Assembly (NCBI RefSeq): GCF_000022265.1
Contig: NC_011979.1
Coordinates: forward strand, 360,001 to 392,000
DNA: 32,000 nt
Source of the DNA: Geotalea daltonii FRC-32
GTDB lineage: Bacteria > Desulfobacterota > Desulfuromonadia > Geobacterales > Geobacteraceae
Direction of reading: 5' to 3'
Shown: positions 910 through 27,214 of the stretch, piece after piece
Numbering within the stretch: the stretch's first letter is position 1
Layout: each line of letters starts with the position of its first letter
Notes under the pieces: generated by a model
What the model saw: the letters and a program-made list of their open reading frames with translations, nothing else
Database searches by the model: none
What the model was told of the DNA's origin: nothing
Position numbers and translations under genes: made by a program

Positions 910-980
910 AAAATGGCCTGCCAGTGTGCAGGCCATTTTTGCTGTGTTGCAAAATCGACCCGCTCCTGGCGGGTTTTTTT
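910..980 (+). terminator. Two tandem rho-independent terminators after the PPIase gene
   Basis: Hairpin 1 is aaaatggcctgc/gcaggccatttt (910-921 pairs with 928-939) followed by a T-run. Hairpin 2 is acccgc/gcgggt (958-963 pairs with 969-974) followed by T7 (974-980). Confidence 0.6.
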
Positions 981-1101
981 GTGTCCGGTGTTTCACTTGA
1001 ATAGACGGTCAGTGAACAACAAACCAAGGAGTGACATTGACAGGACAAAAAGAGAAAATAAACTGTATTAATAAAAGGTTGTTAATTTGATGGAGGCGGA
1101 C

Positions 1102-1344
1102 ATGAAAAACACACTTTCTGCAATAGCGCTCCTTTCTTTTTTTATTATGGCCGGCTGCGGTACTACCGGCGGCACTGCTTCTGTCGGGGCACTTGGTGGC
1201 GCGGCAGCTGGTGGAGGGGTGTATGAGTATCGGCTGCATAAGGCAAAGCAGAGAATAGAGAGCGAACATAAGGCAGGAAAAATGGACGACAAGGAGTACA
1301 ACGCCCGCAAGGACGAGATTGAGCGGTTGCAGCTGCTCAAATAA
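1102..1344 (+). CDS. Small lipoprotein with a Gly-rich (glycine-zipper-like) segment and a charged helical tail
   Basis: GGAGG at 1092-1096 lies 5 nt before ATG 1102. Lipobox FIMAGC. The GALGGAAAGGG tract is followed by a KE-rich helix. The track ORF starts at TTG 1087, but ATG 1102 has the better RBS. Confidence 0.55.
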   Translation: MKNTLSAIALLSFFIMAGCGTTGGTASVGALGGAAAGGGVYEYRLHKAKQRIESEHKAGKMDDKEYNARKDEIERLQLLK

Positions 1345-1376: not shown

Positions 1377-2834
1377 ATGGGCCAAATGAAATATATCTGC
1401 ATCTTTGCTTTATACGCGTGTCTTGTCGGCTGTTACGCCATGCATCCCTCCAGCGGCGGAGGCGGGGCGACGGAACTGGCAGAGGATGCCAGAACCGTCG
1501 ATCCTGAAGACATTGCCCTTCCTTTCGGCTATCGCATCGAGGCAGTTGCTATGGGACTGACCTTTCCCACCGGAGTGACCTTTGACGAAAAGGGGAACAT
1601 TTATGTGGTGGAGGCGGGATATTCCTATGGCGAGGTATGGGAAACCCCCAGGCTTCTTCGCGTCAGGGACGGGCAGCTGGAGGTAATCGCCGAGGGAGGG
1701 AAAAACGGGCCGTGGACAGGAGCTACCCGTCACGGTGGGGCCTTCTTTGTTGCCGAAGGGGGGGAGCTCAATGGCGGCAGGATCCTGCGCATCACCGATG
1801 ACGGCAAGATAGCTGTAATTGCCGACCAGCTTCCTTCCCGTGGTGACCACCACACCAACGGCCCTGCCGTCGGGAATGACGGGCTGATCTACTTCGGCAT
1901 CGGCACGGCCACCAACTCCGGCATCGTCGGCGAGGACAACCTTCGCTTCGGCTGGTTGAAACGTTACCCGGATTTTCACGATACTGCCTGTCGCGACGTC
2001 AGACTTGCCGGCGAAAATTTCCGGACCAAGGATGTGGTCAAGGGGGAAGGTGAGGTTGCAACCGGGGCCTTTGTTCCGTTTGGCACGACCACCGTTAAAG
2101 GCCAGGTGATAAAGGGACGAATTCCATGCAACGGAGCGATTCTCAGGGTGAAGCCGGAGGGAGGGGATTTGGAGCTTTTTGCCTGGGGCTTCCGCAACCC
2201 CTTCGGACTTGCTTTTTCCCCCGATGGAGAGCTGTTCGTTACGGATAACGGCTACGACGACCGGGGGAGCAGACCGGTTTTCGGTGCCGGAGACCCGTTG
2301 TGGCTGGTGAAACAAGGCACCTGGTATGGCTGGCCCGACTACAGCGCCGGACTGCGGCTGGATGAGGGCAACCAATTCAAACCGTTCCTCCAGGAAAAAC
2401 CGCGGCTCCTGCTCTCAGAGTACCCGAACCATCCCCCCAATCCGGCGGCCATCCTACCGGTTCATGCTTCGGCAAATGGTTTCGACTTTTCCCGTAGCGA
2501 CAACTTCGGCCATCGGGGAGAGGCATTTGTGGCCGAGTTCGGGGATCAATCGCCGCCGACCGGCAAGTCTCTCGGGGCAGTGGGATTCAAGGTAGTGCGG
2601 GTGGATGTACGAACCGGGGTCATTCATGAATTCGCCGCCAACAAGGGGAAAACGACAGGGCCTGCATCGGCTCAAGGCAGTAAGGGATTAGAGCGCCCCG
2701 TTGCCGCCCGCTTCGATCCGTCGGGAGAAGCGCTTTACGTGGTGGATTTCGGGATCCTTAAGGAGACGGCAAAGGGTACCGTTCCCCAGCAGAAAACCGG
2801 AGTGTTGTGGCGAATAACGCGGGAACTGAAATAG
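1377..2834 (+). CDS. Beta-propeller dehydrogenase-like lipoprotein (PQQ-dependent sugar / sorbosone dehydrogenase family)
   Basis: Lipobox LVGC near the N-terminus. Motifs typical of GSDH-type propellers: FPTGVTFDEKGNIYVVE, HHTNGPAVGNDGLIYFGIG, WGFRNPFGLAFSPDGELFVTDNGYDDRG. GGGGA RBS lies 6 nt upstream of the ATG. Confidence 0.7.
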   Translation: MGQMKYICIFALYACLVGCYAMHPSSGGGGATELAEDARTVDPEDIALPFGYRIEAVAMGLTFPTGVTFDEKGNIYVVEAGYSYGEVWETPRLLRVRDGQLEVIAEGGKNGPWTGATRHGGAFFVAEGGELNGGRILRITDDGKIAVIADQLPSRGDHHTNGPAVGNDGLIYFGIGTATNSGIVGEDNLRFGWLKRYPDFHDTACRDVRLAGENFRTKDVVKGEGEVATGAFVPFGTTTVKGQVIKGRIPCNGAILRVKPEGGDLELFAWGFRNPFGLAFSPDGELFVTDNGYDDRGSRPVFGAGDPLWLVKQGTWYGWPDYSAGLRLDEGNQFKPFLQEKPRLLLSEYPNHPPNPAAILPVHASANGFDFSRSDNFGHRGEAFVAEFGDQSPPTGKSLGAVGFKVVRVDVRTGVIHEFAANKGKTTGPASAQGSKGLERPVAARFDPSGEALYVVDFGILKETAKGTVPQQKTGVLWRITRELK

Positions 2835-2875: not shown

Positions 2876-3208
2876 ATGCGGCTGATTCCACTGCTGGTCA
2901 TATCGCTTCTCTTTCTGTCCGCTTGCGGCACTCCCCGGCGTGGCGAAAACGTTGCCGGTCCATTGACTCTTGTCACAGAGAAGGAAGTCAGAGGGGAAAG
3001 ATATTTCATGACCTACTGCAACAAGTGTCATCCCCTGGGGGAGAGCGGCGTCGGCCATGCACTGAACAACAAACCTCTGCCCGGCCCTCTGATAAGGACC
3101 CAGGTCCGTCTGGGAGCGGGAGCGATGCCTGCTTTTTCCAAGGAGTTTCTCCCCGACGAGAAACTTGACGACCTCATAGTCTATCTGCAGACCCTGAGAA
3201 AGCACTGA
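2876..3208 (+). CDS. Monoheme class I c-type cytochrome, lipoprotein
   Basis: AGGGGG RBS lies 4 nt before ATG 2876. Signal/lipobox LLFLSACG. Single CNKCH heme motif and a distal Met candidate (GAGAMPAF). The track ORF start at 2807 overlaps the upstream gene and lacks an RBS. Confidence 0.8.
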   Translation: MRLIPLLVISLLFLSACGTPRRGENVAGPLTLVTEKEVRGERYFMTYCNKCHPLGESGVGHALNNKPLPGPLIRTQVRLGAGAMPAFSKEFLPDEKLDDLIVYLQTLRKH

Positions 3209-3213
3209 TTCTA

Positions 3214-4380
3214 ATGGGACAGGACGACGCATGGCACAAGGAAAACCGGGAGCGGGTATTCTGGCAGGAGTTCAGCGTGCCGTGGCGCTTCCCGGTGATC
3301 TTCACCAGAAATGTCTTCGCCCCTGCCAATAATGCACTGGCGACCGTTTTCCAAGCTGCCGGTCCGGTCCCGGTTCTTGCCATTGCCGATAGTGGCGTTG
3401 CCGAGGCAAATGACGGGCTGGCCGATGCTGTCCAAGCTTACGCATCAAGCCACAGGAACGCGCTGAGGCTGCTTTCTCCTCTTCATGTCCTTCCCGGCGG
3501 CGAGAAATGCAAAAATGGGGCGGCCCAGGTGGATCGGCTGCACCGCCTTTTCCATAAGCACAAACTTTGTCGTCATTCGGTGGTGCTGGCTATCGGCGGC
3601 GGAGCATTCCTTGATATGGCCGGTTATGCTGCCGCCACCGCCCATCGGGGCTTGAGGCTGGTCAGGCTGCCGACGACGACACTGGCCCAGAACGATGCAG
3701 GCATCGGCGTCAAGAACGGATACAACTCCTTCGGCAGGAAAAACTGGGTCGGCACCTTCGCTCCCCCCTTTGCCGTCATCAGCGATCTGAACTTCCTCAG
3801 CACCCTGCCCAACCGGGAGTGTCGGGCAGGGCTTGCCGAGGCAGTAAAGGTGGCGGTGATAAAAGACGCCGGTTTCTTTCAACTGCTGTCCGGACAAAGG
3901 AAGAAGCTGGCAGCCCTTGAACTGGAGCAGATGGAGGAAATGATTATCAGGTGTGCCGCACTGCATCTGGAGCATATAGCTGCAGGAGACCCCTTCGAGC
4001 AGGGATCGGCACGTCCCCTCGACTTCGGCCACTGGTCTGCCCATGCACTGGAGGAGGCAAGCGGTGGGGAGATCCTCCATGGCGAGGCGGTGGCCATGGG
4101 AATGGCTCTGGATTGTCTCTATGCAGCAGAAAAAGGGCTCCTGAGGGAAGAGGAACGGGATCAGATCATCCACCTGCTCCAGGACCTTGGCTTCAGGCTG
4201 TCCCATCCGGTCCTGGCGGAACTGGATCTGGAAGGAGCTCTCGACCGTTTCCGCCAGCATCTGGGCGGAACGCTTTGCATAACCCTTCCGCTCGGCATCG
4301 GCTGCCGGGCTGAGTTTCACCAGATGGACCTGGAGGTCCTGCACAGTTCAAGGGACCGGCTGATGGCCCATAAAGGATGA
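3214..4380 (+). CDS. eboD: 3-dehydroquinate synthase-like sugar-phosphate cyclase (EboD-type)
   Basis: DHQS-fold motifs GGGAFLDMAGYAAATAHRGLRLVRLPTTTLAQNDAGIGVKNG and the metal-binding region GHWSAHALE...LHGEAVAMGM. The gene context with the TatD, EboE, NPP and UbiA genes defines an ebo cluster. Confidence 0.75.
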   Translation: MGQDDAWHKENRERVFWQEFSVPWRFPVIFTRNVFAPANNALATVFQAAGPVPVLAIADSGVAEANDGLADAVQAYASSHRNALRLLSPLHVLPGGEKCKNGAAQVDRLHRLFHKHKLCRHSVVLAIGGGAFLDMAGYAAATAHRGLRLVRLPTTTLAQNDAGIGVKNGYNSFGRKNWVGTFAPPFAVISDLNFLSTLPNRECRAGLAEAVKVAVIKDAGFFQLLSGQRKKLAALELEQMEEMIIRCAALHLEHIAAGDPFEQGSARPLDFGHWSAHALEEASGGEILHGEAVAMGMALDCLYAAEKGLLREEERDQIIHLLQDLGFRLSHPVLAELDLEGALDRFRQHLGGTLCITLPLGIGCRAEFHQMDLEVLHSSRDRLMAHKG

Positions 4381-4691
4381 CGATGCGACAGAATATCAAA
4401 CCAACGGCAATGGAGCTTCTGGAATGGGACTTTGTCAAGTGCCGTTCCCGGCTGCTGGAGATCGCCGCCTTCATCGATCGCATTGATCGCTTCGGGGGAA
4501 GTGAAGAGGCACGAAAGGATTTCCGTTATCGGGCACTTTTTCAGGCCCTGGAAATCATCTCCTCCGGTAAACAGAACCGGGTCAGGGAGATCCTGTTGCT
4601 CCTGAGCGATCCCACTTTGCAGCCCCTGGAGGACGTGTTGCCGCCGGAAATCGCGCAGGGTGCGTGGAGGAATGTTCCCGGTGATCATTGA
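4377..4691 (+). CDS. Small conserved-position protein of unknown function (occupies the 'EboA' slot of the cluster; not recognisably EboA)
   Basis: ATGA start/stop overlap with the upstream gene at 4377-4380. 104 aa, helical and charged, with no signal peptide. I recognise no motif. Confidence 0.45.
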   Translation: MTMRQNIKPTAMELLEWDFVKCRSRLLEIAAFIDRIDRFGGSEEARKDFRYRALFQALEIISSGKQNRVREILLLLSDPTLQPLEDVLPPEIAQGAWRNVPGDH

Positions 4692-5484
4692 GCCGCACAT
4701 CCACATGGTTTCCCGCACCACTGACGATTACCGGGCCATGGCCATGCATGGGATCGCCATCGTCACCGAGCCCGCCTTCTGGCCCGGATATGACCGGAGA
4801 ACTGCCGCAGGATTTGCCGATTACTTTGAACAGCTGACGGTCGCCGAACCGGTTCGGGCGGCAAAGTTCGGCATCAGCCACCACTGCTGGCTCGGCCTCA
4901 ATCCCAAGGAAGCAGTCGATCTCGGCCTGGCTCTGGAGGTGCTGGAGATCCTGCCGGAATATCTTGATCGGCCGACGGTCCTGGGCCTTGGCGAGATCGG
5001 CCTGAACCGCAATGGCCGCAACGAGATCAAGGTACTGGAGTGGCAGGTGGAGCTGGCGGCGAGGCGAAATGAACTGATCCTTGTTCATACTCCCCATCTG
5101 GAAGACAAGCTGAAAGGGACCCGTCTTATTCTCGATATAATTGGTGCCGATTCCCGCATTTCCACCGACAGGGTGCTTATCGACCACGCCGAGGAACATA
5201 CCGTCGACCTGATCCTTGAGAAGGGTTTCTGGGCCGGCATTACCCTCTATCCCCACTCCAAATGCTCTGCCGACCGGGCGGTGGACATCCTTGAGACCTC
5301 AGGTTGTGAGCGGATCTGGCTGAATTCTGCCGCCGACTGGGGGGTGAGCAATCCCCTGGCGGTGGTCGAGGCAGGAGAGGAGATGCGGCGTCGCGGCTTC
5401 AGCGAGGAGGCCATAAGCGGTGTGCTATTCCGCAATCCCGCCGCTTTTCTCGGCCAATCCCCGCGGTTCAAAGTCCAGTGCTGA
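4660..5484 (+). CDS. eboB: TatD-related metal-dependent hydrolase (EboB-type)
   Basis: Amidohydrolase/TatD motifs IEPHIHM (HxH), LGEIGLN, LVHTPH, IDHAEE. The start is ambiguous: GTG 4660 or ATG 4672. Both overlap the upstream ORF. Confidence 0.75.
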   Translation: MRGGMFPVIIEPHIHMVSRTTDDYRAMAMHGIAIVTEPAFWPGYDRRTAAGFADYFEQLTVAEPVRAAKFGISHHCWLGLNPKEAVDLGLALEVLEILPEYLDRPTVLGLGEIGLNRNGRNEIKVLEWQVELAARRNELILVHTPHLEDKLKGTRLILDIIGADSRISTDRVLIDHAEEHTVDLILEKGFWAGITLYPHSKCSADRAVDILETSGCERIWLNSAADWGVSNPLAVVEAGEEMRRRGFSEEAISGVLFRNPAAFLGQSPRFKVQC

Positions 5485-6554
5485 CCTACTGCACCAATAT
5501 CCACCCCGGCCACAGCTGGGATGAGATTGTGACTAAGGTCTGGCCTCAGGTGCTGCAGGTGAAGGAAGTAGTTGCTCCCGATGCTGCATTTCCGGTCGGA
5601 CTTCGGATTTCGGCACTTGCGGCCCGGCAGGTCACTCCGGCAGCAGCAAGAAGATTCGCCGACTGCTGCGCCGATGACGGGTGCTTTATCCCCACCATCA
5701 ACGGCTTTCCCCATGGGCAGTTTTATGGCACTCCGGTCAAGGAAGGGGCCTATCTGCCAGACTGGCGCAGCCCGGAGAGGGTCCGGTATACCCTGGACCT
5801 GATCCGGCTGCTCAGACTCTGGCTCCCCCCTTCGCTGACCGGTTCCATCTCCACCCTGCCCATCGCCTACGGCCGGTACATGTGCAGAGATGATCTGGGG
5901 GTGGTGCGGAAAAACCTGCTGACAGTGCTCAGGGAGCTGGAGTTGTCCGCTTCGGCCGGAAAACCGGTCATCCTGGCCCTGGAACCGGAGCCGGGATGCC
6001 TGCTGGAAACCGCGCGGGACGTGGCCCACTTCCTGGAAGCGATGGCCTTTCCTGCCGATCTGCGTCGGCTGATCGGCATCTGCTTCGATTGCTGCCATGC
6101 TGCCGTTCTTCATGAGGAACCACGGCGAGCCTTTTCTTTGCTGGGCGAGGCGGGCATAGCCGTGACAAAGATTCATCTTTCCTCGGCAGTACGTTTCGCC
6201 ACGAATCACCTCCAGGCAGCGGCACTATTCGGAGATGATTGTTACCAGCACCAGACGAGTGTCAGGAGCCATGCCGGTACCGTCCATTTTCCCGACCTGG
6301 CGGATGCCATCAATGATGTACCTCTGCTCCAGGGTGAGTGGCGCATACACTACCATCTCCCCATCTACGACAGCGGCAACGCCCTCTACGGGACAACAAA
6401 CGATTTCATCGGCGAGGTGCTCACCTGGGCTCCGCCCCAGACCCTTCTGGAAATCGAGACCTACACCTACGCAAATCTTCCGCCGAAATTGCGCCAGGGT
6501 GGCGTGATCGAATCCATTGCCCGGGAGTTCGCCTGGCTTGGGGGAAAGCTGTGA
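5478..6554 (+). CDS. eboE: Xylose-isomerase-like TIM-barrel protein (EboE-type metabolite traffic protein)
   Basis: GTG start overlaps the eboB stop (GTGCTGA, 5478-5484). Motifs YCTNIHPG, LEPEPGC, CFDCCHAAV, WRIHYHLP, LEIETYT. Confidence 0.75.
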   Translation: MLTYCTNIHPGHSWDEIVTKVWPQVLQVKEVVAPDAAFPVGLRISALAARQVTPAAARRFADCCADDGCFIPTINGFPHGQFYGTPVKEGAYLPDWRSPERVRYTLDLIRLLRLWLPPSLTGSISTLPIAYGRYMCRDDLGVVRKNLLTVLRELELSASAGKPVILALEPEPGCLLETARDVAHFLEAMAFPADLRRLIGICFDCCHAAVLHEEPRRAFSLLGEAGIAVTKIHLSSAVRFATNHLQAAALFGDDCYQHQTSVRSHAGTVHFPDLADAINDVPLLQGEWRIHYHLPIYDSGNALYGTTNDFIGEVLTWAPPQTLLEIETYTYANLPPKLRQGGVIESIAREFAWLGGKL

Positions 6555-7918
6555 AGCGGACAGTGGTCATCAATGTTGCCGGCCTCAGTTCCTCCCTTCT
6601 TGGACCCCATACGCCAAGGATCAATGAACTTGCCGACAGCGTTTCCCGGATCCATCCGGTCTGTCCTGCAGTAACCTGCACCATGCAGGCGACCTTTCTT
6701 ACGGGAAGGCTGCCGGCGCAACACGGCATCGTCGGCAACGGCTGGTATTTTCGCGATCTGGCCGAGGTTTTTTTCTGGCGACAGTCGAACCGGCTCATTC
6801 AGGGGGAAAAGATCTGGCAGGTGGGGCGGGCCATAAATACGGCCTTCACCTGCGCCAACAGTTTCTGGTGGTACAACATGGCCACCGATGCGGACTGGAG
6901 CGTTACCCCCCGTCCCGTATATTGTGCCGACGGGCGAAAGCTGCCCGATTGCTATACCCAGCCGCCGCACCTGCGGCAGGTCTTTACCAGGCGCTTCGGC
7001 GCCTTCCCCCTCTTTCGCTTCTGGGGTCCCGCCACCTCCATCGCCTCGACCCGGTGGATCGGCGATGCTGCCATGGCTATTGAAGAGCTCTATTCCCCGG
7101 TCCTTCATCTTGTATATCTGCCTCACCTGGACTACGTCCTGCAGAAGGTGGGGCCGGAAGGATCAATCAGTAGAGATCTGCGGGAGTTGGACGAAGCCTG
7201 CGGCAGACTGCTCGACTTCTTCCGGAACCGTGGCTGCCGCGTCATCGTTCTCTCCGAGTACGGTATTTCTGCCGTTGACCGGCCGGTCCATCCCAACCGC
7301 ATCATGCGGGAGGCGGGCCTGCTGTCGACTAAAACGGATCTGGGGCGGGAATACCTCGATCCTGGGGCCAGCAGGGCGTTCGCCGTGGCTGATCACCAGG
7401 TTGCCCATATCTATGTTCGCCAGAAAAGGGATGTGGAGGGGGTGGCCGCCCTGTTTCGCCAGGTGCCGGGGATCGAGCACATTCTCGACTCATTCCGGAA
7501 GAAGGAGTGGGGGCTGGGGCACGGCCGGTCGGGTGAGTTGGTGCTGGTTGCGGGCAAGGGAAGCTGGTTCAGTTATTACTTCTGGATGGATGACGGAAAA
7601 GCACCCGATTACGCAAGGACGGTGAATATCCATGCCAAGCCGGGCTACGATCCGTGCGAATTGTTCTTCGACCCCAAACTGAAATTTCCGGCGTTGACAG
7701 CGGGGCTCTCCCTATTAAAGCAGCGGATGGGGTTGAGGACGCTGCTGGATGTGATACCAATCGATGCCGGGCTCGCCAAAGGTTCACACGGCAGGATTCC
7801 CGAAGATCCCGGAGAACTGCCGCTGCTCCTGTCCTCGGACCCACAGCTGCTTAACTCTGACAGCGTGGCGGCCCAGGATGTATTTCATGTCATCCTCGAT
7901 CATGTATTCAGGGAGTGA
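6551..7918 (+). CDS. eboF: Alkaline-phosphatase superfamily / nucleotide pyrophosphatase-phosphodiesterase-like enzyme (EboF-type)
   Basis: GTGA overlap with the eboE stop at 6551-6554, with GGGGA upstream. Motifs VVINVAGLS, PAVTCTMQATFLTGRLPAQHGIVGNGW (nucleophile Thr region), YLPHLDY, GSHG. The track ORF start at 6338 is just an in-frame open extension inside eboE. Confidence 0.75.
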   Translation: MKRTVVINVAGLSSSLLGPHTPRINELADSVSRIHPVCPAVTCTMQATFLTGRLPAQHGIVGNGWYFRDLAEVFFWRQSNRLIQGEKIWQVGRAINTAFTCANSFWWYNMATDADWSVTPRPVYCADGRKLPDCYTQPPHLRQVFTRRFGAFPLFRFWGPATSIASTRWIGDAAMAIEELYSPVLHLVYLPHLDYVLQKVGPEGSISRDLRELDEACGRLLDFFRNRGCRVIVLSEYGISAVDRPVHPNRIMREAGLLSTKTDLGREYLDPGASRAFAVADHQVAHIYVRQKRDVEGVAALFRQVPGIEHILDSFRKKEWGLGHGRSGELVLVAGKGSWFSYYFWMDDGKAPDYARTVNIHAKPGYDPCELFFDPKLKFPALTAGLSLLKQRMGLRTLLDVIPIDAGLAKGSHGRIPEDPGELPLLLSSDPQLLNSDSVAAQDVFHVILDHVFRE

Positions 7919-7922
7919 AACC

Positions 7923-8621
7923 ATGAAGCCTGTTCGTATCTATCTCGAATTGTGCAGAGTCAGCAATCTGCCGACGATCTGGATCAACACCCTGGCCGCA
8001 TGTCTGCTGTCGGGCAACTGGCAGCTGAAGAAGATATTCCTGCTACTGCTCGGCTTTTCATTGATGTACTGCGGCGGCATGGCCATGAACGACTGGCTCG
8101 ATGCCGATATGGACCGGCAGACACGACCCGACCGGCCGATCCCGTCCGGTAGGATCGGTGCAGACGAGGCCAGGATCTGCTGGCTATCCCTCTTTGCCGT
8201 GTCACTTTGCCTTTTTTTTGCGGCCGGGGGCTATATCGCCTTCTGCGCCGCCGTAATCCTGCTGCTCTTCATCACAACCTACAACCTGGGGCATGGTCTT
8301 TCACCCCTTGCCGCCATCCCCATGGCTGGTTGCCGCTTCATGATCTATATGATCAGCGGCATTGTCTGCGCCGGAAAACCGAACCTTGTGCTCGTGCTTC
8401 TGGCTGCGGTGCAGTTCGGCTACATTCTTTACCTTACCATCAAGGCCCGGCGGGAAAAAGAAAACGGTCAGATCATATCCCAAATTCCCCTTTTTCTTGC
8501 CGGAGTGCCTCTCGTTGATGGTGTCGCCATGGCCCTCACCATGGGTATCGTTTGGCTCCTGGCCGGTTTTGCCGGGGGCATTGCCACCCTGGCCGCCCAG
8601 GCGAAAATAAGGGGCGACTAG
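7923..8621 (+). CDS. eboC: UbiA-family polyprenyltransferase (EboC-type)
   Basis: GGGAG RBS lies 7 nt before ATG 7923. Multi-TM protein with the NDWLDADMDRQ (NDxxDxxxD) prenyl-diphosphate binding motif. The track start at 7764 overlaps eboF. Confidence 0.8.
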   Translation: MKPVRIYLELCRVSNLPTIWINTLAACLLSGNWQLKKIFLLLLGFSLMYCGGMAMNDWLDADMDRQTRPDRPIPSGRIGADEARICWLSLFAVSLCLFFAAGGYIAFCAAVILLLFITTYNLGHGLSPLAAIPMAGCRFMIYMISGIVCAGKPNLVLVLLAAVQFGYILYLTIKARREKENGQIISQIPLFLAGVPLVDGVAMALTMGIVWLLAGFAGGIATLAAQAKIRGD

Positions 8622-8723
8622 CTCACGGACGGTGGACCAAGAACCGGGCAACAGCCGCAACAGCTTGAAATGGCGTCCGTTGCTGCCATACTGTTCATAT
8701 AAAATATTCCTAAGGAGATGGTC

Positions 8724-10379
8724 ATGGAAAAAGCGATGTTCTGCAGACAGTGCGAACAAGCGGCCCAGGGAGTGGGTTGCGAGGTGATGGGCAATTGCGG
8801 CAAGAATCCCCAGGTCGCTGCCCTGCTGGACCTGATGATCCATGGACTCGAAGGAGTCGCAGTCTATGCCCACCGGGCACGGGAATTGGGGGTGAAGGAC
8901 CCGGAAGTGGACCGGTTCATGCTCGATGGTCTTTTCACCAGGGTTACCAATGTGAACTTTGACCCGGAAGATATTGCCGGCCGCCTGCGGCGATGCTACC
9001 AGATGAAGGATCAGGCGCGGTCCTTGTTCGAGAAGGCTTACCAGGAACGGAAAGGGGAGAAGGCTCCGGAGTTCCATAGCGGGCCTGAGGCATGGCAGCC
9101 TGCGGAAGATACGGCAGGGCTGATCACCCAGGGCCGACAATACGGGGTCTTGACCTGGCACCAGGACCCGGATACGCTGTCGGCCCTGGAGCTGGTCCTC
9201 TACGGTCTGCTCGGTATGGGGGCGTTTGCCTGGCACGCGGCGGAACTTGGCAAGGAGGATGATGAAATCTATGCCTTTATCCACCGTGCCCTGGCGGCTG
9301 CGGCTGATCGCCGGATCACCCTTCAGGATTTTGTCTCACTTGCATTGGAATGCGGCAAGATGAACCTGCGCACCATGGAGCTCCTTTACCAGGGGCATGC
9401 CGAGCGTCTTGCCGATCCGGAGCCGATGAAGGTAAACCTGGGAACCCGTGGCGGTAAGGGAATCGTCGTTTCCGGGCACGACCTGCCCATGCTGGAGGAG
9501 ATCCTGAAACAGAGCGAGGGAAAGGGGGTCAATGTCTATACCCACGGCGAGATGTTACCGGCCAACGGTTACCCGAGGCTGAGAAAATACGCCCATTTCG
9601 CCGGCCACTTCGGCACCGCCTGGCAGAACCAGACCAGGGAACTCCCTGATTTCCCCGGTGCGATCATCTTCAATACCAACTGCATCCAGCGCCCCGACCC
9701 CTCCTATACCGACCGGCTTTTCACCTGGGGGGAAGTGGCCTGGCCCGGCATTACCCATCTGGAGGGGTTTGATTTTTCGCCGGTGATAGAAAAAGCCATG
9801 CAGCTTCCCGACCTGCCGGAAAAGCCGGGACAGGAAATTCTGGTCGGTTTCGGCCATGAGGCGGTCTTCAAGGTGGCCGGGGCAGTGGTGGACGCGGTAA
9901 AAACAGGTGCTATCCGCCGTTTTTTCCTCATCGGCGGCTGCGATGGGGCCAAGCCGGGACGCAACTACTTCACCGAGCTGGCACAACAGGTGCCCAAGGA
10001 CTGTGTGATTCTAACCCTTGCCTGCGGCAAGAACCGTTTCAACCGGCTGGAATTCGGCGATATTGGCGGCATTCCCAGACTGCTGGACGTGGGGCAGTGC
10101 AACGATGCCTATTCGGCCATCCGCATCGCCCTTGCCCTGGCCGAGGCCTTTGAATGCGGGGTCAATGAACTGCCGCTGTCCATGATCCTCTCCTGGTACG
10201 AGCAGAAGGCGCACGTCATCCTCCTGACTCTTCTCCATCTGGGGATTAAGGGCATCCGGCTCGGTCCCTCCCTGCCCGCGTACGTTTCTCCGGGGGTACT
10301 GGATTTCCTCGTCCAGAACTATGATCTGGGGCCGACCACCACTGCCGAAAACGACCTGCGGCAGGCCCTTGGCGCATAG
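8724..10379 (+). CDS. hcp: Hybrid cluster protein / hydroxylamine reductase
   Basis: The N-terminal Cys cluster MFCRQCEQAAQGVGCEVMGNCGK is the typical Hcp signature. Also GHDL, FNTNC, FLIGGCDG, LACGKNRF, GQCNDAYSA. AAGGAG RBS is spaced 6 nt from ATG 8724 (ATG 8718 abuts the RBS). Confidence 0.9.
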   Translation: MEKAMFCRQCEQAAQGVGCEVMGNCGKNPQVAALLDLMIHGLEGVAVYAHRARELGVKDPEVDRFMLDGLFTRVTNVNFDPEDIAGRLRRCYQMKDQARSLFEKAYQERKGEKAPEFHSGPEAWQPAEDTAGLITQGRQYGVLTWHQDPDTLSALELVLYGLLGMGAFAWHAAELGKEDDEIYAFIHRALAAAADRRITLQDFVSLALECGKMNLRTMELLYQGHAERLADPEPMKVNLGTRGGKGIVVSGHDLPMLEEILKQSEGKGVNVYTHGEMLPANGYPRLRKYAHFAGHFGTAWQNQTRELPDFPGAIIFNTNCIQRPDPSYTDRLFTWGEVAWPGITHLEGFDFSPVIEKAMQLPDLPEKPGQEILVGFGHEAVFKVAGAVVDAVKTGAIRRFFLIGGCDGAKPGRNYFTELAQQVPKDCVILTLACGKNRFNRLEFGDIGGIPRLLDVGQCNDAYSAIRIALALAEAFECGVNELPLSMILSWYEQKAHVILLTLLHLGIKGIRLGPSLPAYVSPGVLDFLVQNYDLGPTTTAENDLRQALGA

Positions 10380-10465
10380 CGAAAAAATAGGGGACGGTCC
10401 TTTCCTCGATTGAATTTTGCGTTATTATTTAATGCATTGTCATGATTATAAAACAGGAGGGACTG

Positions 10466-11926
10466 ATGAAACATCCATATGCTAAAGTTGCGGCTGCCAT
10501 TGCCGGGGTACTGGCGCTGGCGGCTACCTCTGTTGCGGCGCCGGCGGTCTTCAACGTGGATCGGGAATTTTACCCGTTCTATCCGTCGCTTATCAAGTGG
10601 AACAAGTCGCCGGCGGAGTTCACTCCACCAGCCGACTGCGGCGGCTGCCATGAAAAACAGTTCCGGGAGTGGAACGGTTCCGTGCACCAGCTTGCCTTCC
10701 TTGACCCGGTCTACCAGGGGGAGCTGAACAAGGCGGTCAAGGCGGTGGGGCATGAGGTTACCCGCCAGTGCGAGGGTTGCCACTCCGCGGCGGGCATGGT
10801 AACCGGCGAAATTAAAGGGTCGGGACTGGCCGGATTAAGCCCCATGGCCCTGGGAGGCGTCTCCTGCGATATCTGCCATTCCATCAGCGATACTACCCAC
10901 TGGCAGACCCCGTCCCATGAGCCTGAAAATGGCTCGATGATCCTCAGTCCCGGTCTTTCCGGCAAGGGGGGAACCGATCTCGTCAAGCGCGGACCGTGGA
11001 AGCCTTCTGCCGATTGTGGCGGTGGCTTCCACAAATGCGAAGAGTCTTCGCTGCACCAGCAAGCCGACCTCTGTGCCTCCTGCCACCAGGTCTACCATTA
11101 CGATGCCCATTTCCCCCTGGAAGCCACCTACCTGGAGTGGAAACATGGCCCCTATGCCCAAAAATCAATCCTCTGCCAGGACTGCCACATGGTGGATACC
11201 GCCACCTTCAAACGCACGGCCGATGAATTCAGAAAGCCGGAAAGGGGTGAATACCACCACTACTTCAATGGTGCCAACTATCTCCTTTATTATCTGGCCG
11301 GGGCTGCAGCCGAGAGAACGGGTGACAGGGAGCTGGTCGCATCCCTGAAGGAAAAATACCAGATGGCGGTGGAGCATCTGAAGAGTGCCGCAGCACTGGA
11401 GATGACGCCGGTTTACCGGGCAGGGCAGCTCAGTGAGCTGAAGGTCAGGGTAAAGAATATCCGCGCCGGACACAACCTGCCCACCTCCCTGACCAACGTG
11501 CGGCAGATGTGGCTGGAGATAACGGCAAAAGACGAGAAGGGTAAGGTGGTATTGGCCAGCGGCGCCGTACAGAAGGACGGCACCTTGCCGGAAAACACAC
11601 GCATCTTCAATTCGGACGGCATGGGAAAGGACTTCCATTTTGCCGTGGATCCATGGGTGGTAACGGCATTTTCCCGCCACGATACCATTCCTCCCCACGG
11701 CTACAAGGACGTTTTCTACGGCATGAACGGGGCGAAGGGGGCTAAGAAGGTAACGGTGGAGGTAAAGCTGCGCTATCGCCAGGCTGACCAGAAGGTGGCG
11801 GAGGCGCTTCTGGCCGCGGTGCCCAAGGACATGAACCTGAAGGAGATTTACGGCCTGGAGAAGGTGCCGCAGCTGCCGGTGGTAGATATGACCATGGAGC
11901 GGCAGACCTTCCAGGTAAGGAAATAG
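10466..11926 (+). CDS. Periplasmic pentaheme c-type cytochrome with a non-heme C-terminal domain
   Basis: AGGAGG lies 5 nt before ATG 10466. Signal peptide ...LAATSVAAPA. Five CxxCH motifs (CGGCH, CEGCH, CDICH, CASCH, CQDCH). The C-terminal ~200 aa carry no heme motif (IRAGHNLPTSLTNVRQMWLEI...). Confidence 0.85.
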   Translation: MKHPYAKVAAAIAGVLALAATSVAAPAVFNVDREFYPFYPSLIKWNKSPAEFTPPADCGGCHEKQFREWNGSVHQLAFLDPVYQGELNKAVKAVGHEVTRQCEGCHSAAGMVTGEIKGSGLAGLSPMALGGVSCDICHSISDTTHWQTPSHEPENGSMILSPGLSGKGGTDLVKRGPWKPSADCGGGFHKCEESSLHQQADLCASCHQVYHYDAHFPLEATYLEWKHGPYAQKSILCQDCHMVDTATFKRTADEFRKPERGEYHHYFNGANYLLYYLAGAAAERTGDRELVASLKEKYQMAVEHLKSAAALEMTPVYRAGQLSELKVRVKNIRAGHNLPTSLTNVRQMWLEITAKDEKGKVVLASGAVQKDGTLPENTRIFNSDGMGKDFHFAVDPWVVTAFSRHDTIPPHGYKDVFYGMNGAKGAKKVTVEVKLRYRQADQKVAEALLAAVPKDMNLKEIYGLEKVPQLPVVDMTMERQTFQVRK

Positions 11927-13285: not shown

Positions 13286-14737
13286 TTATTCCAGCTGGTA
13301 GACCTGCAGAATCCTGCGGAACGACGGGGACGAAAGTGAGACTTCAGGCAGATACTCGCCGATCAATTCCCTGCTCCAGTGCCGGCCGGTATGGCGATGC
13401 TCTTCCCGGGTGGTGAAACGGTAGCGGTAATAGAGCGCCCGCACCTTAAGCGGGGGCTTGTCGGGGAACGGGTTCTTCTTCAATAGTCCCAGCACTTGCC
13501 GGTCCCCCTGAAGAAGCTTGGCCAGGAAATGAATAAACCACAGCGGCCGGGACCGGGAAGGCATGGCTGCAAACCACATCAGCCAGTCGAGACGCAGATG
13601 GTAGGGGGCGATGAGCGGCGGTATTCCCTGCGGGTCCCCCGGTTTGCCGCGGAATTCATACTCTACCCAGCGGCTAGCAGTGCCGGGTGCGTTATCGGCC
13701 GTTCCCTCGACAACGATTTCGTAACGCTCACGGGTAATGCTGCCAAAGGCGCCATAGGTGTTAACCAGATGGAAGGGGTCAAAGCTGGTGTTCATGATCT
13801 GGGCCGGAGAGATCATGTTCAGCATCGGCTGGATGCTGCGAATTGCCACCAGAATCGCAACTCCCCAGCAGGCGGCATCGAACAGCGGCGGTGGCGGTGC
13901 AAAAGGTGGAACCTCCAGCGCCAGGAATGGAAGCTGGCCGGTGGTGACAGTGGAGAAGCAGAGGATGAAGGCAAGCCAGTTGAGCCAGGCAAAATTACCG
14001 CTGACGATGATGAAAAAGAGAAAGGCGGCAGAGACGACGCCGCCCGTCACTGCCAGCGGTTGGGGAGCGAAGTAGAGACAGGGCATGACCAGTTCGGCCA
14101 GATGGTTGAAGGCAACTCCGCATCGCCGCAGCACGGCAGGGAGGAGATGGAAAAAACGGCTGACGGGGTTCGGCATGGGCTGGGTTTCGAAGTGGTAGTC
14201 CAGGCAGCTCAGGTCACGCCAGCATGGGTCACCGCGCATCTTGATCAGCCCGGCGCCGAACATGACACGAAACAGGACCCAGCGGTAGAGCCAGATGATG
14301 ACAATGGGCGGCTCAACGCCGACCGGTCCGAGAAAGATGGCGAGGAAACCGCATTCAAGAAGGAGAGATTCCCAGCCGAAGGCGTAGAAATCCTGACCGA
14401 TGTTGACATAGGACAGATAGATGGCCCAGAGCAGAAACCAGACGATCATTGATACAGTTGTTCCATATGCCTCGGAAAGACCGGTCACTGCCGCAAGGGA
14501 GAGACCGGTGCCAAGCCGGGCAAAGAGTTGGAAGGCCCTGTCAGAGGGAAACAGGTAAAAGATGCTGGGGGCGGAACGGAACGGTACCAGCTGCATGTAG
14601 TGGGTAGCCGGTAACAGCCCCTTCTGGCCGCACAACGGCCGGAACTGGTTGAGTGCCACCAGAAAGCCCATCAGATAAATCAAGCCCAGACCCCGTTGCA
14701 GCAAGAGCCTAGGCACCCAGTATTCCGAGGATTCCAT
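13286..14737 (-). CDS. Lipase maturation factor (LMF1/DUF1222) family integral membrane protein
   Basis: Multi-TM protein. N-terminal LLLQRGLGLIYLMGFLVALNQFRPLCGQKGLLP, plus CWRDLSCLDYHFETQPMPN and a C-terminal soluble region NTYGAFGSITRERYEIVVEGT...WVEYEFRGKPGD, characteristic of LMF-family proteins. GGAGG lies 5 nt before the ATG. Confidence 0.7.
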   Translation of the reverse strand: MESSEYWVPRLLLQRGLGLIYLMGFLVALNQFRPLCGQKGLLPATHYMQLVPFRSAPSIFYLFPSDRAFQLFARLGTGLSLAAVTGLSEAYGTTVSMIVWFLLWAIYLSYVNIGQDFYAFGWESLLLECGFLAIFLGPVGVEPPIVIIWLYRWVLFRVMFGAGLIKMRGDPCWRDLSCLDYHFETQPMPNPVSRFFHLLPAVLRRCGVAFNHLAELVMPCLYFAPQPLAVTGGVVSAAFLFFIIVSGNFAWLNWLAFILCFSTVTTGQLPFLALEVPPFAPPPPLFDAACWGVAILVAIRSIQPMLNMISPAQIMNTSFDPFHLVNTYGAFGSITRERYEIVVEGTADNAPGTASRWVEYEFRGKPGDPQGIPPLIAPYHLRLDWLMWFAAMPSRSRPLWFIHFLAKLLQGDRQVLGLLKKNPFPDKPPLKVRALYYRYRFTTREEHRHTGRHWSRELIGEYLPEVSLSSPSFRRILQVYQLE

Positions 14738-25984: not shown

Positions 25985-26131
25985 ATGACCACAACATTAA
26001 TTCTGTAAAAAAATTAATAGAAAACCACAAGTGAACATGAATAGAAAGTCTTGAAAGGGTGATGGTTGGCATTTGCCGGGGGGGCGAAGGACCCCCTTGC
26101 AAAAGTGGGTTATGTGAGATGAGGAATGAGA

Positions 26132-26443
26132 TTAACCCCAATAAGCTTTATCGTGGGGACCTAGGGCAATAAATTTGAGAGTATCGTCTGGGCATTGCTG
26201 ACAATCGGCACAGAGAACGATAGCATCATCACCTTTTTTCCGGCAAATCGAGCAGTACAGATAAATGATCAGAAAATTTCGACGAACAGAGCAACTGTAA
26301 TAACCCCGGAAATTTCCTTTAAGGGGTTCACCCAAAGAAATCGGATTTGCGGTGATCATGTCAATTTTTTTACGGACGACATCCTTTATTGCGTTATGTT
26401 TTTTAAGTGATGTGACGAAATCATCACTAAACATGAGGTTCAT
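26132..26443 (-). CDS. RelE/ParE-superfamily type II toxin with an internal Cys-rich insertion
   Basis: LGEPLKGNFRGYYSCSVRRNFLIIY ... LKFIALGPHDKAY matches the RelE/ParE core. CSICRKKGDDAIVLCADCQQC is inserted between the strands. ATGA overlap with the upstream antitoxin gene. Confidence 0.65.
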   Translation of the reverse strand: MNLMFSDDFVTSLKKHNAIKDVVRKKIDMITANPISLGEPLKGNFRGYYSCSVRRNFLIIYLYCSICRKKGDDAIVLCADCQQCPDDTLKFIALGPHDKAYWG

Positions 26444-26694
26444 TTAAATACCTCATCATAACTTTGCCATTTGACAGCACCTGATTTGATCCGTGTAATT
26501 GTCTCAATGAGGGAATCAGTGAAATCCGGATCGCTCAAAATTATTTCAGTAGGATCGTTTTCCTTGAGACGCTTCAATTTCAGGGCAAATTGGGTAAAAA
26601 CCTCGGAGACGGTCGTTCTCTGGCTTTCCGCATATTCTTTGACAAACTCAATCAGATCACTATCAAGGGTGAGATTGATTCGGGCTTTTTGCAT
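26440..26694 (-). CDS. Ribbon-helix-helix-type antitoxin
   Basis: N-terminal KARINLTLDSDLIEFVKEYAESQRTTVSEVF (beta-strand plus two helices). 84 aa. Translationally coupled to the downstream toxin. Confidence 0.65.
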   Translation of the reverse strand: MQKARINLTLDSDLIEFVKEYAESQRTTVSEVFTQFALKLKRLKENDPTEIILSDPDFTDSLIETITRIKSGAVKWQSYDEVFK

Positions 26695-26807
26695 GGCACA
26701 CCTCCTGTGAGTATATTATGCGTATATCATGCTCATTGTCAAGATGGTAGTCAAGAGTTGCATGGTTTGTCTACTGGAGACACCAAATCCCTACTTATGA
26801 ATTATTC

Positions 26808-26923
26808 TATCATTGCAGTGATATTTTAGATTCAAAAACGCTTAAAAGAGTTATTAATATCACTGCAGTGATATTAATGTTGCATCAAGGCATATTTTCA
26901 ATTATTGTAGCACTGCAATAGTA
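26808..26923. promoter_or_regulatory. Three phased palindromic operator candidates in the hipBA / relBE-like divergent control region
   Basis: TATCATTGCAGTGATA (26808-26823). ATATCACTGCAGTGATAT (26857-26874, a perfect 18-bp palindrome). TAGCACTGCAATAGTA (26908-26923). Centres are exactly 50 bp apart, and each site is preceded by a related A/T-rich flank (ATTATTC, TTATTAA, ATTATTG). Confidence 0.6.
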
Positions 26924-26944
26924 TTATAGAGTGTAAAACTCACG

Positions 26945-27214
26945 ATGGAGCAGAGTATGCGAAGAGTAATAATGCGGTCCCCTGTCCCAGAATCCCAGCC
27001 ACTGCTTGATGCGGAGACTCTCGGTATCTTCGTACGTGCAAGTCGCACCAAGACAGGTATGGGAATCCATGAGGCAGCCGCTTTTTGTGGTGTGGCTGTA
27101 GGCACCATGCAGAAGATAGAGAAAGCCAGCGGCGATGTTAAGTTGAGTTCAATCCTGACTGTCTGCAAGATGCTTGGAATATCACTTACTATCGGCAGCA
27201 GGGTAAACTCATGA
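26945..27214 (+). CDS. hipB: HipB-like XRE-family HTH antitoxin/repressor
   Basis: HTH LGIFVRASRTKTGMGIHEAAAFCGVAVGTMQKIEKASGDVKLSSILTVCKMLGISL. ATGA overlap with hipA. Confidence 0.8.
   Translation: MEQSMRRVIMRSPVPESQPLLDAETLGIFVRASRTKTGMGIHEAAAFCGVAVGTMQKIEKASGDVKLSSILTVCKMLGISLTIGSRVNS

Follow-up and report, generated by a model that had tools for sequence, protein, structure and literature searches.

Do six adjoining genes of Geotalea daltonii FRC-32 form a complete ebo cluster, which variant of that cluster are they, and what could their product be in an anaerobic, metal-reducing host? The genes occupy positions 3214-8621 of the window, a stretch of 32,000 nucleotides (nt) from contig NC_011979.1. 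Geotalea is a genus of the Geobacteraceae. A sequence-only reading of the window placed six consecutive genes here, and the list of open reading frames (ORFs) confirms them, all on the + strand. We consider the region to be an eboG-type operon, eboD-eboG-eboB-eboE-eboF-eboC, with a product of the saccharoquinoline/thallusin class and an upstream trio of lipoproteins that takes part in a redox step (probability approximately 0.75). Family assignments are from NCBIfam and Pfam searches of the window ORFs with family cut-offs. For comparison, 80 genome loci were fetched via an EboE profile and the window proteins were mapped onto them. L-numbers are the locus labels of this set.

The ebo gene set and its variant

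The cluster contains the following genes, each given with the match or position on which its assignment rests.

3214..4380, + strand: eboD, 3-dehydroquinate synthase (DHQS)-like sugar-phosphate cyclase; NF004852/PRK06203, 535 bits (cut-off 333)
4377..4691, + strand: putative eboG, 104-aa helical protein in place of eboA; no family match, position between D and B
4681..5484, + strand: eboB, TatD-like amidohydrolase-clan hydrolase, 267 aa; PF01026, 26.4 bits (cut-off 27)
5478..6554, + strand: eboE, xylose-isomerase-like TIM barrel; NF035939 TIM_EboE equivalog, 331 bits (cut-off 250)
6551..7918, + strand: eboF, nucleotide pyrophosphatase/phosphodiesterase of the alkaline-phosphatase superfamily, 455 aa, GTG start at 6551; PF01663 Phosphodiest, 193 bits
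7923..8621, + strand: eboC, UbiA-family prenyltransferase, short 232-aa form; PF01040, 72 bits

EboE is 97% identical to a Geotalea toluenoxydans protein that is named 'metabolite traffic protein EboE' by NCBI, and NCBI records give the same name to the EboE orthologues in Geotalea, Geomonas and Geobacter. EboF is 54-66% identical to the cluster-linked eboF of other loci. EboB is just under the gathering score of PF01026, yet it shares 57-70% identity over its full length with the gene in the same position of other ebo clusters. The EboE equivalog, the EboD-type cyclase, the Phosphodiest and UbiA members and the conserved synteny bear out the earlier claim of a complete ebo cluster in a Geobacteraceae genome.

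On the aroB equivalog TIGR01357 (cut-off 305), the cyclase reaches only 220 bits, compared with 535 bits on PRK06203. The eboE-adjacent DHQS-like genes of five other ebo clusters (Trinickia, Ca. Loosdrechtia, Burkholderiales, Opitutales and Acidobacteriia) score 476-561 bits on PRK06203 and 188-218 bits on aroB. Because the score pattern is the same in these five clusters, the gene is, by its profile matches, EboD-type. In more than 50 loci, the eboE-linked cyclase shares 44-57% identity with the window protein. Alternatively, 3214-4380 could be a shikimate-pathway aroB, with the cluster a chance grouping or a conventional quinone pathway. The NCBIfam label of PRK06203 ('3-dehydroquinate synthase') and the best solved-structure matches of EboD, which are DHQS entries at ~150 bits, agree with this. 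It is nevertheless highly improbable, given that the TIGR01357 score is under the cut-off, that every eboE-linked cyclase tested is PRK06203-high and aroB-low, and that the cyclase gene is fixed beside eboE in the same >50 loci. An ordinary shikimate AroB was rejected on the score and the pattern. A grouping with genuine AroB, which the sequence-only reading had kept in view, is not what the two scores indicate.

Loci L013, L014, L016, L018, L019, L023 and L027, from Desulfobulbia and 'delta' metagenome-assembled genomes (MAGs), contain an eboD-eboE pair alone, with B, F and C not nearby. These pairs (e.g., L013:8757-11787) are followed by a same-strand ORF that, judged by eye, resembles a class I S-adenosylmethionine (SAM) methyltransferase (UbiE-like). 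The pair and this ORF may form a different, smaller pathway on the same cyclitol.

Neither Pfam nor NCBIfam gives a match to the 104-aa protein, even at E<=10. Its family consists of proteins of ~100 residues, with 348 representatives at E<=1e-3 in a full HMMER scan and >7800 clusters, all unnamed, in a profile search. Wherever both neighbors are on the contig, the gene is located between eboD and eboB, directly upstream of eboB, and this includes fetched loci from Acidobacteriota and Chloroflexota. Other fetched loci contain a ~290-aa EboA upstream of eboB instead. The possibility that the 104-aa ORF is itself an EboA was rejected: the EboA models NF035937/NF035938 do not match it at E<=10, and hhalign of the two families gives a probability of 0.2%. 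The same models do recognize the EboA of L026. No EboA is found in the window cluster with the EboA NCBIfam models at E<=10.

A second variant of the ebo operon has been described in which a short, poorly conserved EboG, unrelated to EboA by HHalign, replaces EboA (Yurchenko et al. 2016, Open Biol; PMC5133447). It is present in Acidobacteriaceae (KBS 96), Thermithiobacillus (tepidarius), Herpetosiphon and Deinococcales, and its EboB sequences form a separate clade (PMC5133447). Table S2 of that paper lists the arrangements CDGBEF, DGBECF and DGBxECF and the EboG accessions WP_020718748, WP_028989843 and ABX04197. The position, size and taxa of the 104-aa protein strongly support its identification as EboG, which is an indirect match to the published description and not to an aligned EboG sequence. 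The protein that had appeared as a peculiar '104-aa unknown' fits this published variant. The Geotalea operon and the published eboG-type operon share the gene set (D, G, B, E, F and C), the D-G-B-E core order, the short non-EboA protein between eboD and eboB, and an EboB clade distinct from that of eboA-type operons. They differ in the position of eboC, which is at the 3' end in Geotalea (DGBEFC, against the published CDGBEF and DGBECF), in the anaerobic, metal-reducing Geobacteraceae host, and in three lipoprotein genes on the 5' side.

An AlphaFold (AF2) model of EboG that uses 46 family members contains four helices, with a predicted local distance difference test (pLDDT) score of 86. No fold match to this model is found in the PDB with Foldseek.

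The window EboB is 57-70% identical to the EboB of eboG-type loci and 39-45% identical to the EboB of eboA-type loci. Because of this split, the published A/G bipartition of EboB is reproduced here. The two groups also form length classes, 267 aa in eboG-type loci and 297-309 aa in eboA-type loci. A beta-proteobacterial MAG (L008:5699-13163) and a Hydrogenophilales MAG (L009:4432-13456) contain both modules in tandem. The order in these two loci is D, EboA, A-type EboB (39% identical to that of the window), EboG, G-type EboB (61%), then E, F and C. Since L008 and L009 carry both, eboA and eboG are not strictly mutually exclusive. This suggests that EboA and EboG are partners of EboB, with each small protein traveling with its own EboB type. 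In Geotalea, EboG would act as a small helical partner of EboB, a role proposed because G and B are adjacent in every eboG-type locus with both on the contig and because the two genes overlap here.

The D-G-B-E-F-C order, which the sequence-only reading had taken for a local rearrangement, is the commonest among the fetched eboG-type loci. It is the same in both other Geotalea genomes (G. toluenoxydans and sp. SG265) and is also found in Syntrophorhabdaceae, two beta-proteobacterial MAGs (L008 and L011), a Hydrogenophilales MAG and two deltaproteobacterial MAGs. In L008 and the Hydrogenophilales MAG, eboA and a second eboB are inserted between eboD and the 104-aa gene. The same order, cut by contig ends or with eboC not detected, occurs in Nitrospirae, a Geobacter MAG, Acidobacteriota, Chloroflexota and Verrucomicrobia. 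Geotalea and about a dozen unrelated lineages have the same order and strand. Because the set and order recur both in relatives of G. daltonii and in many unrelated lineages, the arrangement is, on the evidence of synteny, not due to chance, and the lack of conserved co-occurrence that the sequence-only reading had allowed for is not observed. Within the Geobacterales, ebo is patchy, since Geomonas propionica has a lone EboE homologue (L004:10001-11059, 54% identical) and D, G, B, F and C are undetected within 10 kb of it.

EboC scores 82 bits on the NCBIfam EboC model (cut-off 250) and 84 bits on SCO3242, both below cut-off. On the EboC model, the short-form EboC of L026, the only eboA-type locus tested, is likewise under the cut-off, at 67 bits. 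The window protein is the positional orthologue of eboC at 37-41% identity and contains the first Asp-rich motif (NDWLDADMD, NDxxDxxxD). A canonical second Asp-rich motif (DxxxD) is hard to discern in the EboC proteins of the compared loci, in the long form as well as in the short one. Its absence from the window protein is therefore not specific to this locus, as both forms are alike in this respect. EboC sequences fall into length classes of 222-251 aa in eboG-type and (A)BDEFC loci and ~290 aa in FABDEC-type loci, with a few of 300-316 aa. The ~290-aa form has roughly 55 extra residues (about two helices) over the short form.

The six genes are tightly packed: four neighboring pairs overlap, by 4, 11, 7 and 4 nt, and the fifth is separated by 4 nt. 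The overlaps are ATGA at 4377-4380 between D and G, GTGCTGA at 5478-5484 between B and E, and GTGA at 6551-6554 between E and F. The G/B overlap is 11 nt if eboB starts at GTG 4681, the start that gives 267 aa in gene calls on identical contigs. The F-C spacing is 4 nt, with a GGGAG Shine-Dalgarno-like motif there. The start of eboC is most likely ATG 7923 (232 aa) rather than 7764, based on gene calls on identical contigs and on the N-termini of homologues. The overlaps at 4377, 5478 and 6551 had been read earlier as a sign of strict stoichiometric co-expression. They are present in the sequence and support translational coupling, but stoichiometry beyond that is not supported.

Propellers and cytochromes c beside ebo genes

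Three genes for predicted lipoproteins are located on the 5' side of eboD.

1102..1344, + strand: 80-aa predicted lipoprotein with lipobox IMAGC, no family; gene call on identical contigs, no Pfam match
1377..2834, + strand: 485-aa beta-propeller lipoprotein, remote member of the soluble glucose dehydrogenase (sGDH)/GSDH superfamily; Pfam GSDH PF07995, 36.5 bits (cut-off 25)
2876..3208, + strand: 110-aa monoheme c-type cytochrome lipoprotein with CNKCH and lipobox LSAC; PF13442 Cytochrome_CBB3, 44 bits

All three proteins carry lipoprotein-type signal peptides, and the arrangement of the trio is conserved in three Geotalea genomes. The 80-aa lipoprotein is kept at the same position in G. toluenoxydans (97.5%) and SG265 (84%). 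Only 5 nt separate the end of the cytochrome c gene from the start of eboD, and no terminator is found between the trio and eboD in a terminator scan. Judging by this spacing, the trio is probably co-transcribed with the ebo operon. Because the cytochrome c gene ends so close to eboD, the unit probably reaches upstream to about 1102.

The PF07995 match of the propeller is partial and covers only about 77 residues. Its NCBIfam matches are all under cut-off: the ScyD/ScyE family NF033206 (63.5 bits, cut-off 80), the PVC heme-binding N-terminal domain (61 bits, cut-off 122) and non_repeat_PQQ. A homologue of the propeller in L052 scores 55 bits on the ScyD/ScyE model. Membership of the window propeller in ScyD/ScyE was rejected, as the score is below the cut-off and the match is partial. 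A profile of 4 propeller homologues matches the sGDH structure 1c9u at E 8e-10 and also matches 2ism, 6jt5, 3das and 3a9g. The propeller shares a GFRNP...YGW segment with sGDH proteins. Its N-terminus is a lipobox-type signal peptide, and the CxxCH motif is absent. A single-sequence AF2 model had a pLDDT of 36 and was discarded. Soluble glucose/sorbosone dehydrogenases that use pyrroloquinoline quinone (PQQ) and have cytochrome c partners (PF07995; 1c9u, 2ism, 3das and 6jt5) have the fold family, export and pairing with a small cytochrome c in common with the Geotalea propeller. Unlike these enzymes, the Geotalea propeller is related to the family only remotely and in part, and pqq genes are not present in the window.

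Propellers of this kind recur beside ebo genes. In 18 of the 80 fetched loci, an sGDH-like propeller is within 2 kb of an ebo gene. None is found in 612 kb of flank more than 2.5 kb from ebo genes; the near flank searched is 356 kb. The 18 loci include related ones, so the count is not phylogenetically independent, and at least 8 different gene arrangements are involved. Homologues of the window propeller adjoin ebo genes in L003, L005, L052, L059 and L082. Those outside Geotalea are at L052:4025-5623, L059:10574-12584 and L082:12843-15327. The gene orders include prop-B-C-F-D-E in Ca. Loosdrechtia, F-A-B-D-E-C-cytc-prop in a Burkholderiales MAG and cytc-cytc-prop-A-B in an alphaproteobacterial MAG. 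Because propeller homologues adjoin ebo in these three other settings, the neighborhood may be meaningful beyond the Geobacteraceae.

Unsupervised clustering of every non-ebo ORF located up to 2.5 kb from an ebo gene yielded a second PF07995 family, a bona fide one (83-125 bits), in 14 loci (L021, L022, L040, L041, L043, L046, L051, L053, L054, L069, L070, L071, L078 and L082). The usual order is this second propeller, a member of a second cytochrome c family and then the ebo genes (e.g., L041:3522-4853 and L041:4897-5319). In L059 and L082, the ebo-linked propeller gene has beside it a cytochrome c gene related to that of the window. Each of the two propeller families often occurs together with a separate monoheme cytochrome c family of its own, and one of these cytochromes carries the motif CKFCHGKSAYPGKAPKLNP. 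A cytochrome c is within ~400 nt of an ebo gene or beside a propeller gene in at least 15 loci. In the ebo papers surveyed, no mention was found of cytochromes, sGDH-type dehydrogenases or PQQ together with ebo clusters. The link of ebo clusters to sGDH-like propellers and cytochromes c appears to be new, and the neighborhood suggests a periplasmic redox step that is tied to ebo. We regard the trio upstream of eboD as probable accessory genes and the wider link as a lead.

Product of the pathway and competing readings

The sequence-only reading held that the ebo product is still unknown, which is out of date. The EboD product is reported in PMC12904256. A preprint of May 2026, which is unreviewed, links ebo to two farnesylated quinolines, saccharoquinoline and thallusin (10.64898/2026.05.21.724671). 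In that work, every thallusin producer tested has ebo genes and the non-producers have none, and single deletion of eboB, C, E or F abolishes thallusin. EboC farnesylates 6,7,8-trihydroxyquinaldate, aspartate is incorporated into the quinoline and thallusin binds Fe(III). The step from saccharoquinoline to thallusin resembles an O2-dependent ring cleavage, and the preprint identifies no enzyme for it. It lists ebo core genes in Desulfobacterota among other phyla and makes no mention of eboG or anaerobes. The gene set that it defines for thallusin is present in the window according to the profile searches and locus mapping. The Geotalea cluster belongs to the known eboG-type variant, comes from a lineage with existing annotation of these genes, and has a chemistry on which something is now known. 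The earlier statement that an anaerobic metal-reducer context is uncharacterized is correct insofar as it is experimentally unstudied, yet NCBI already names EboE in this group and the preprint includes Desulfobacterota.

The first two steps of the proposed pathway have been shown in other organisms, and we infer the remainder. EboD would act first and supply a cyclitol. In the cytoplasm, EboB, EboE and EboF would convert the EboD-derived cyclitol and aspartate to a polyhydroxy-quinoline-2-carboxylate. The membrane UbiA enzyme EboC would then farnesylate this compound to give a meroterpenoid of the saccharoquinoline/thallusin class, an Fe(III) chelator. The upstream trio probably supplies a periplasmic, O2-independent redox step tied to the ebo product. 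Because the host genus is anaerobic and opening of the ring to give thallusin seems to require an oxidative rearrangement, the expected end point or main product is a saccharoquinoline-type catechol precursor.

Canonical eboABCDEF operons and thallusin genes (Bacteroidota, eustigmatophyte plastids and Cyanobacteria) differ from the Geotalea cluster, which is without eboA. The Geotalea EboB is 39-45% identical to eboA-type EboB, and its EboC is 27-41% identical to non-eboG EboC and is a shorter form. Unlike the canonical systems, anaerobic Geotalea may not perform the oxidative ring opening to thallusin. The EDB cluster of Pseudomonas fluorescens NZI7 and the ebo/scytonemin system of Nostoc punctiforme have homologous ebo genes in common with Geotalea. 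In N. punctiforme, ebo is functionally linked to ScyE, a periplasmic beta-propeller-type protein. In contrast to these two systems, scy or tryptophan-catabolic genes are not present at the Geotalea locus, and the Geotalea propeller is sGDH-like and under the ScyD/ScyE cut-off. A link to the soluble electron shuttle of G. uraniireducens was set aside and is kept as a remark only, as the literature assigns that shuttle to riboflavin (PMC6277576).

Several points weigh against an eboG-type operon with this product and a coupled redox trio. The assignment to thallusin comes from one unreviewed preprint, the product proposed for Geotalea is an extension by analogy, and no validated producer in the preprint is shown to be eboG-type or anaerobic. 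EboG is recognized from a description and not by comparison with a named EboG accession. The substrate or prenyl donor of EboC could differ, because its score is far below the cut-off (82 against 250 bits) and it is a short form that lacks ~55 residues. The only basis for co-transcription with the upstream genes is their spacing. Geobacteraceae have very many cytochromes, such that adjacency within the genus alone means little, and the propeller association counts related loci that are not phylogenetically independent.

The role of the trio divides the remaining readings. As an addition to the proposed pathway, the propeller may be a tailoring enzyme that oxidizes the exported ebo meroterpenoid or its precursor in the periplasm and passes electrons to the monoheme cytochrome c. 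Candidate reactions are an aromatization, a catechol-to-quinone conversion and the saccharoquinoline-to-thallusin rearrangement. Two sGDH-like families, each with its own cytochrome c family, abut ebo in at least 8 arrangements, the window propeller and cytochrome c both have lipoprotein signal peptides, and no enzyme has been found for the oxidative rearrangement (10.64898/2026.05.21.724671). We hold this idea only tentatively. Approximately 60 of the 80 ebo loci are without such neighbors, several of them with ample flank, and the validated thallusin producers are not reported to need a propeller or cytochrome; the similarity of the propeller to sGDH is remote and its cofactor binding is putative. 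A functional unit confined to 3214-8621, with the three upstream lipoprotein genes as unrelated neighbors, is somewhat unlikely. The density of cytochrome genes in Geobacteraceae (another multiheme cytochrome is at 10442-11926) fits such a boundary, as does the exact trio, which among the 80 fetched loci is seen only in Geotalea. The 5-nt gap without a terminator does not, nor do the sGDH-like propellers beside ebo in the 18 loci from distant lineages and in none of the far flanks.

Two further readings concern what the ebo product does. In the 'metabolite traffic' model (Klicki et al. 2018), a prenylated cyclitol-phosphate carrier takes metabolites from the cytoplasm through the inner membrane to enzymes of the periplasm, which here would be the propeller and cytochrome. 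The NCBI name of EboE reflects this model and the propeller has a partial ScyD/ScyE-family match (63.5 bits). The model is improbable for this locus: that match is under the cut-off, and the preprint finds a discrete secreted product, a possibly indirect effect on scytonemin and an EboC that takes a hydroxyquinoline, not a cyclitol phosphate (10.64898/2026.05.21.724671). More speculative still, and to be regarded as a long shot, is that the ebo product also serves as a prenyl-anchored, PQQ-like quinoline catechol/o-quinone cofactor or mediator for periplasmic sGDH-like propellers that pass electrons to small cytochromes c. The 6,7,8-trihydroxyquinoline-2-carboxylate head group has a metal face (N, 8-oxygen and 2-carboxylate) and a vicinal-dioxygen redox face, as in PQQ. 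If true, a PQQ-like role would account for the clustering of sGDH-like propellers and cytochromes c with ebo across many lineages, two of them from anaerobic groups (Geotalea and the anammox-type Ca. Loosdrechtia). It would also explain why the periplasmic propeller protein ScyE of Nostoc needs ebo and why Fe(III)-reducing Geotalea keeps the ebo pathway.

The eboG-type operon with a saccharoquinoline/thallusin-class product remains the preferred reading. It places a complete operon of this type in a cultivated, genetically approachable, anaerobic genus that reduces Fe(III) and U(VI). In the literature surveyed, no product has been determined for any eboG-type or anaerobic ebo system. An anaerobic host is relevant here, as the oxidation of saccharoquinoline to thallusin looks O2-dependent, and tight binding of Fe(III) by thallusin-class compounds could matter to an iron-respiring organism. 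The recurrent propellers and cytochromes c are concrete candidate genes for the missing redox chemistry and bear on the role of ebo for the producer itself.

Boundaries of the unit and neighboring genes

The following features flank the probable nine-gene unit.

ORF 1-891, upstream of the hairpin: PPIC-type rotamase; Pfam scan
957..975, + strand: terminator-like hairpin after the upstream peptidyl-prolyl isomerase (PPIase) gene, likely 5' boundary of the unit; 8-bp stem with 5 GC pairs, then a T-run, consensus match only
1031..1064, + strand: candidate promoter of all nine genes, a pair of overlapping sigma-70-like matches; TTGACA-16-TAAACT, 10/12 matches, consensus match only
8665..8692, + strand: promoter-like site of the downstream hcp, likely 3' boundary; TTGAAA-16-CATACT with extended TG
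8718-10379, next gene 3' of eboC: hydroxylamine reductase/hybrid-cluster protein (hcp); NF003658, 757 bits

The gap from eboC to hcp is 96 nt. The hcp gene has its own promoter-like site and looks unrelated to the ebo unit. The eboC-hcp spacer (8622-8717) contains an imperfect inverted repeat, GCAACAGC...GCGTCCGTTGCTGC, that overlaps the promoter-like site and may be a regulator binding site for hcp. No riboswitch, other RNA or tRNA is found in the window. Ten other window ORFs were scanned, including the PPIase, an LMF1-like protein, OEP, PMT- and GT2-type glycosyltransferases, a GH5-like protein and an ABC exporter, and no further ebo-related genes are seen among them.

The first 11 kb of the window has 96.9% DNA identity to G. 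toluenoxydans JCM 15764 and 79% to Geotalea sp. SG265. In the G. toluenoxydans locus (L005, 5847-7726 and 8589-9369), there are apparent frameshifts relative to the window in the propeller, cytochrome c, eboD, eboB and eboF. These are probably sequencing errors in a draft assembly and not pseudogenes.

Two features of the window lie farther from the ebo unit. A 483-aa ORF on the - strand (13286-14737) contains lipase-maturation-factor domains (PF06762, 202 bits; PF25179, 172 bits), a family known mainly from eukaryotes. The G+C content falls to 0.40 at 26001-27000, compared with about 0.55-0.60 elsewhere, and is <0.50 up to 29000. The low-G+C stretch from 26001 may be foreign DNA or an intergenic region.

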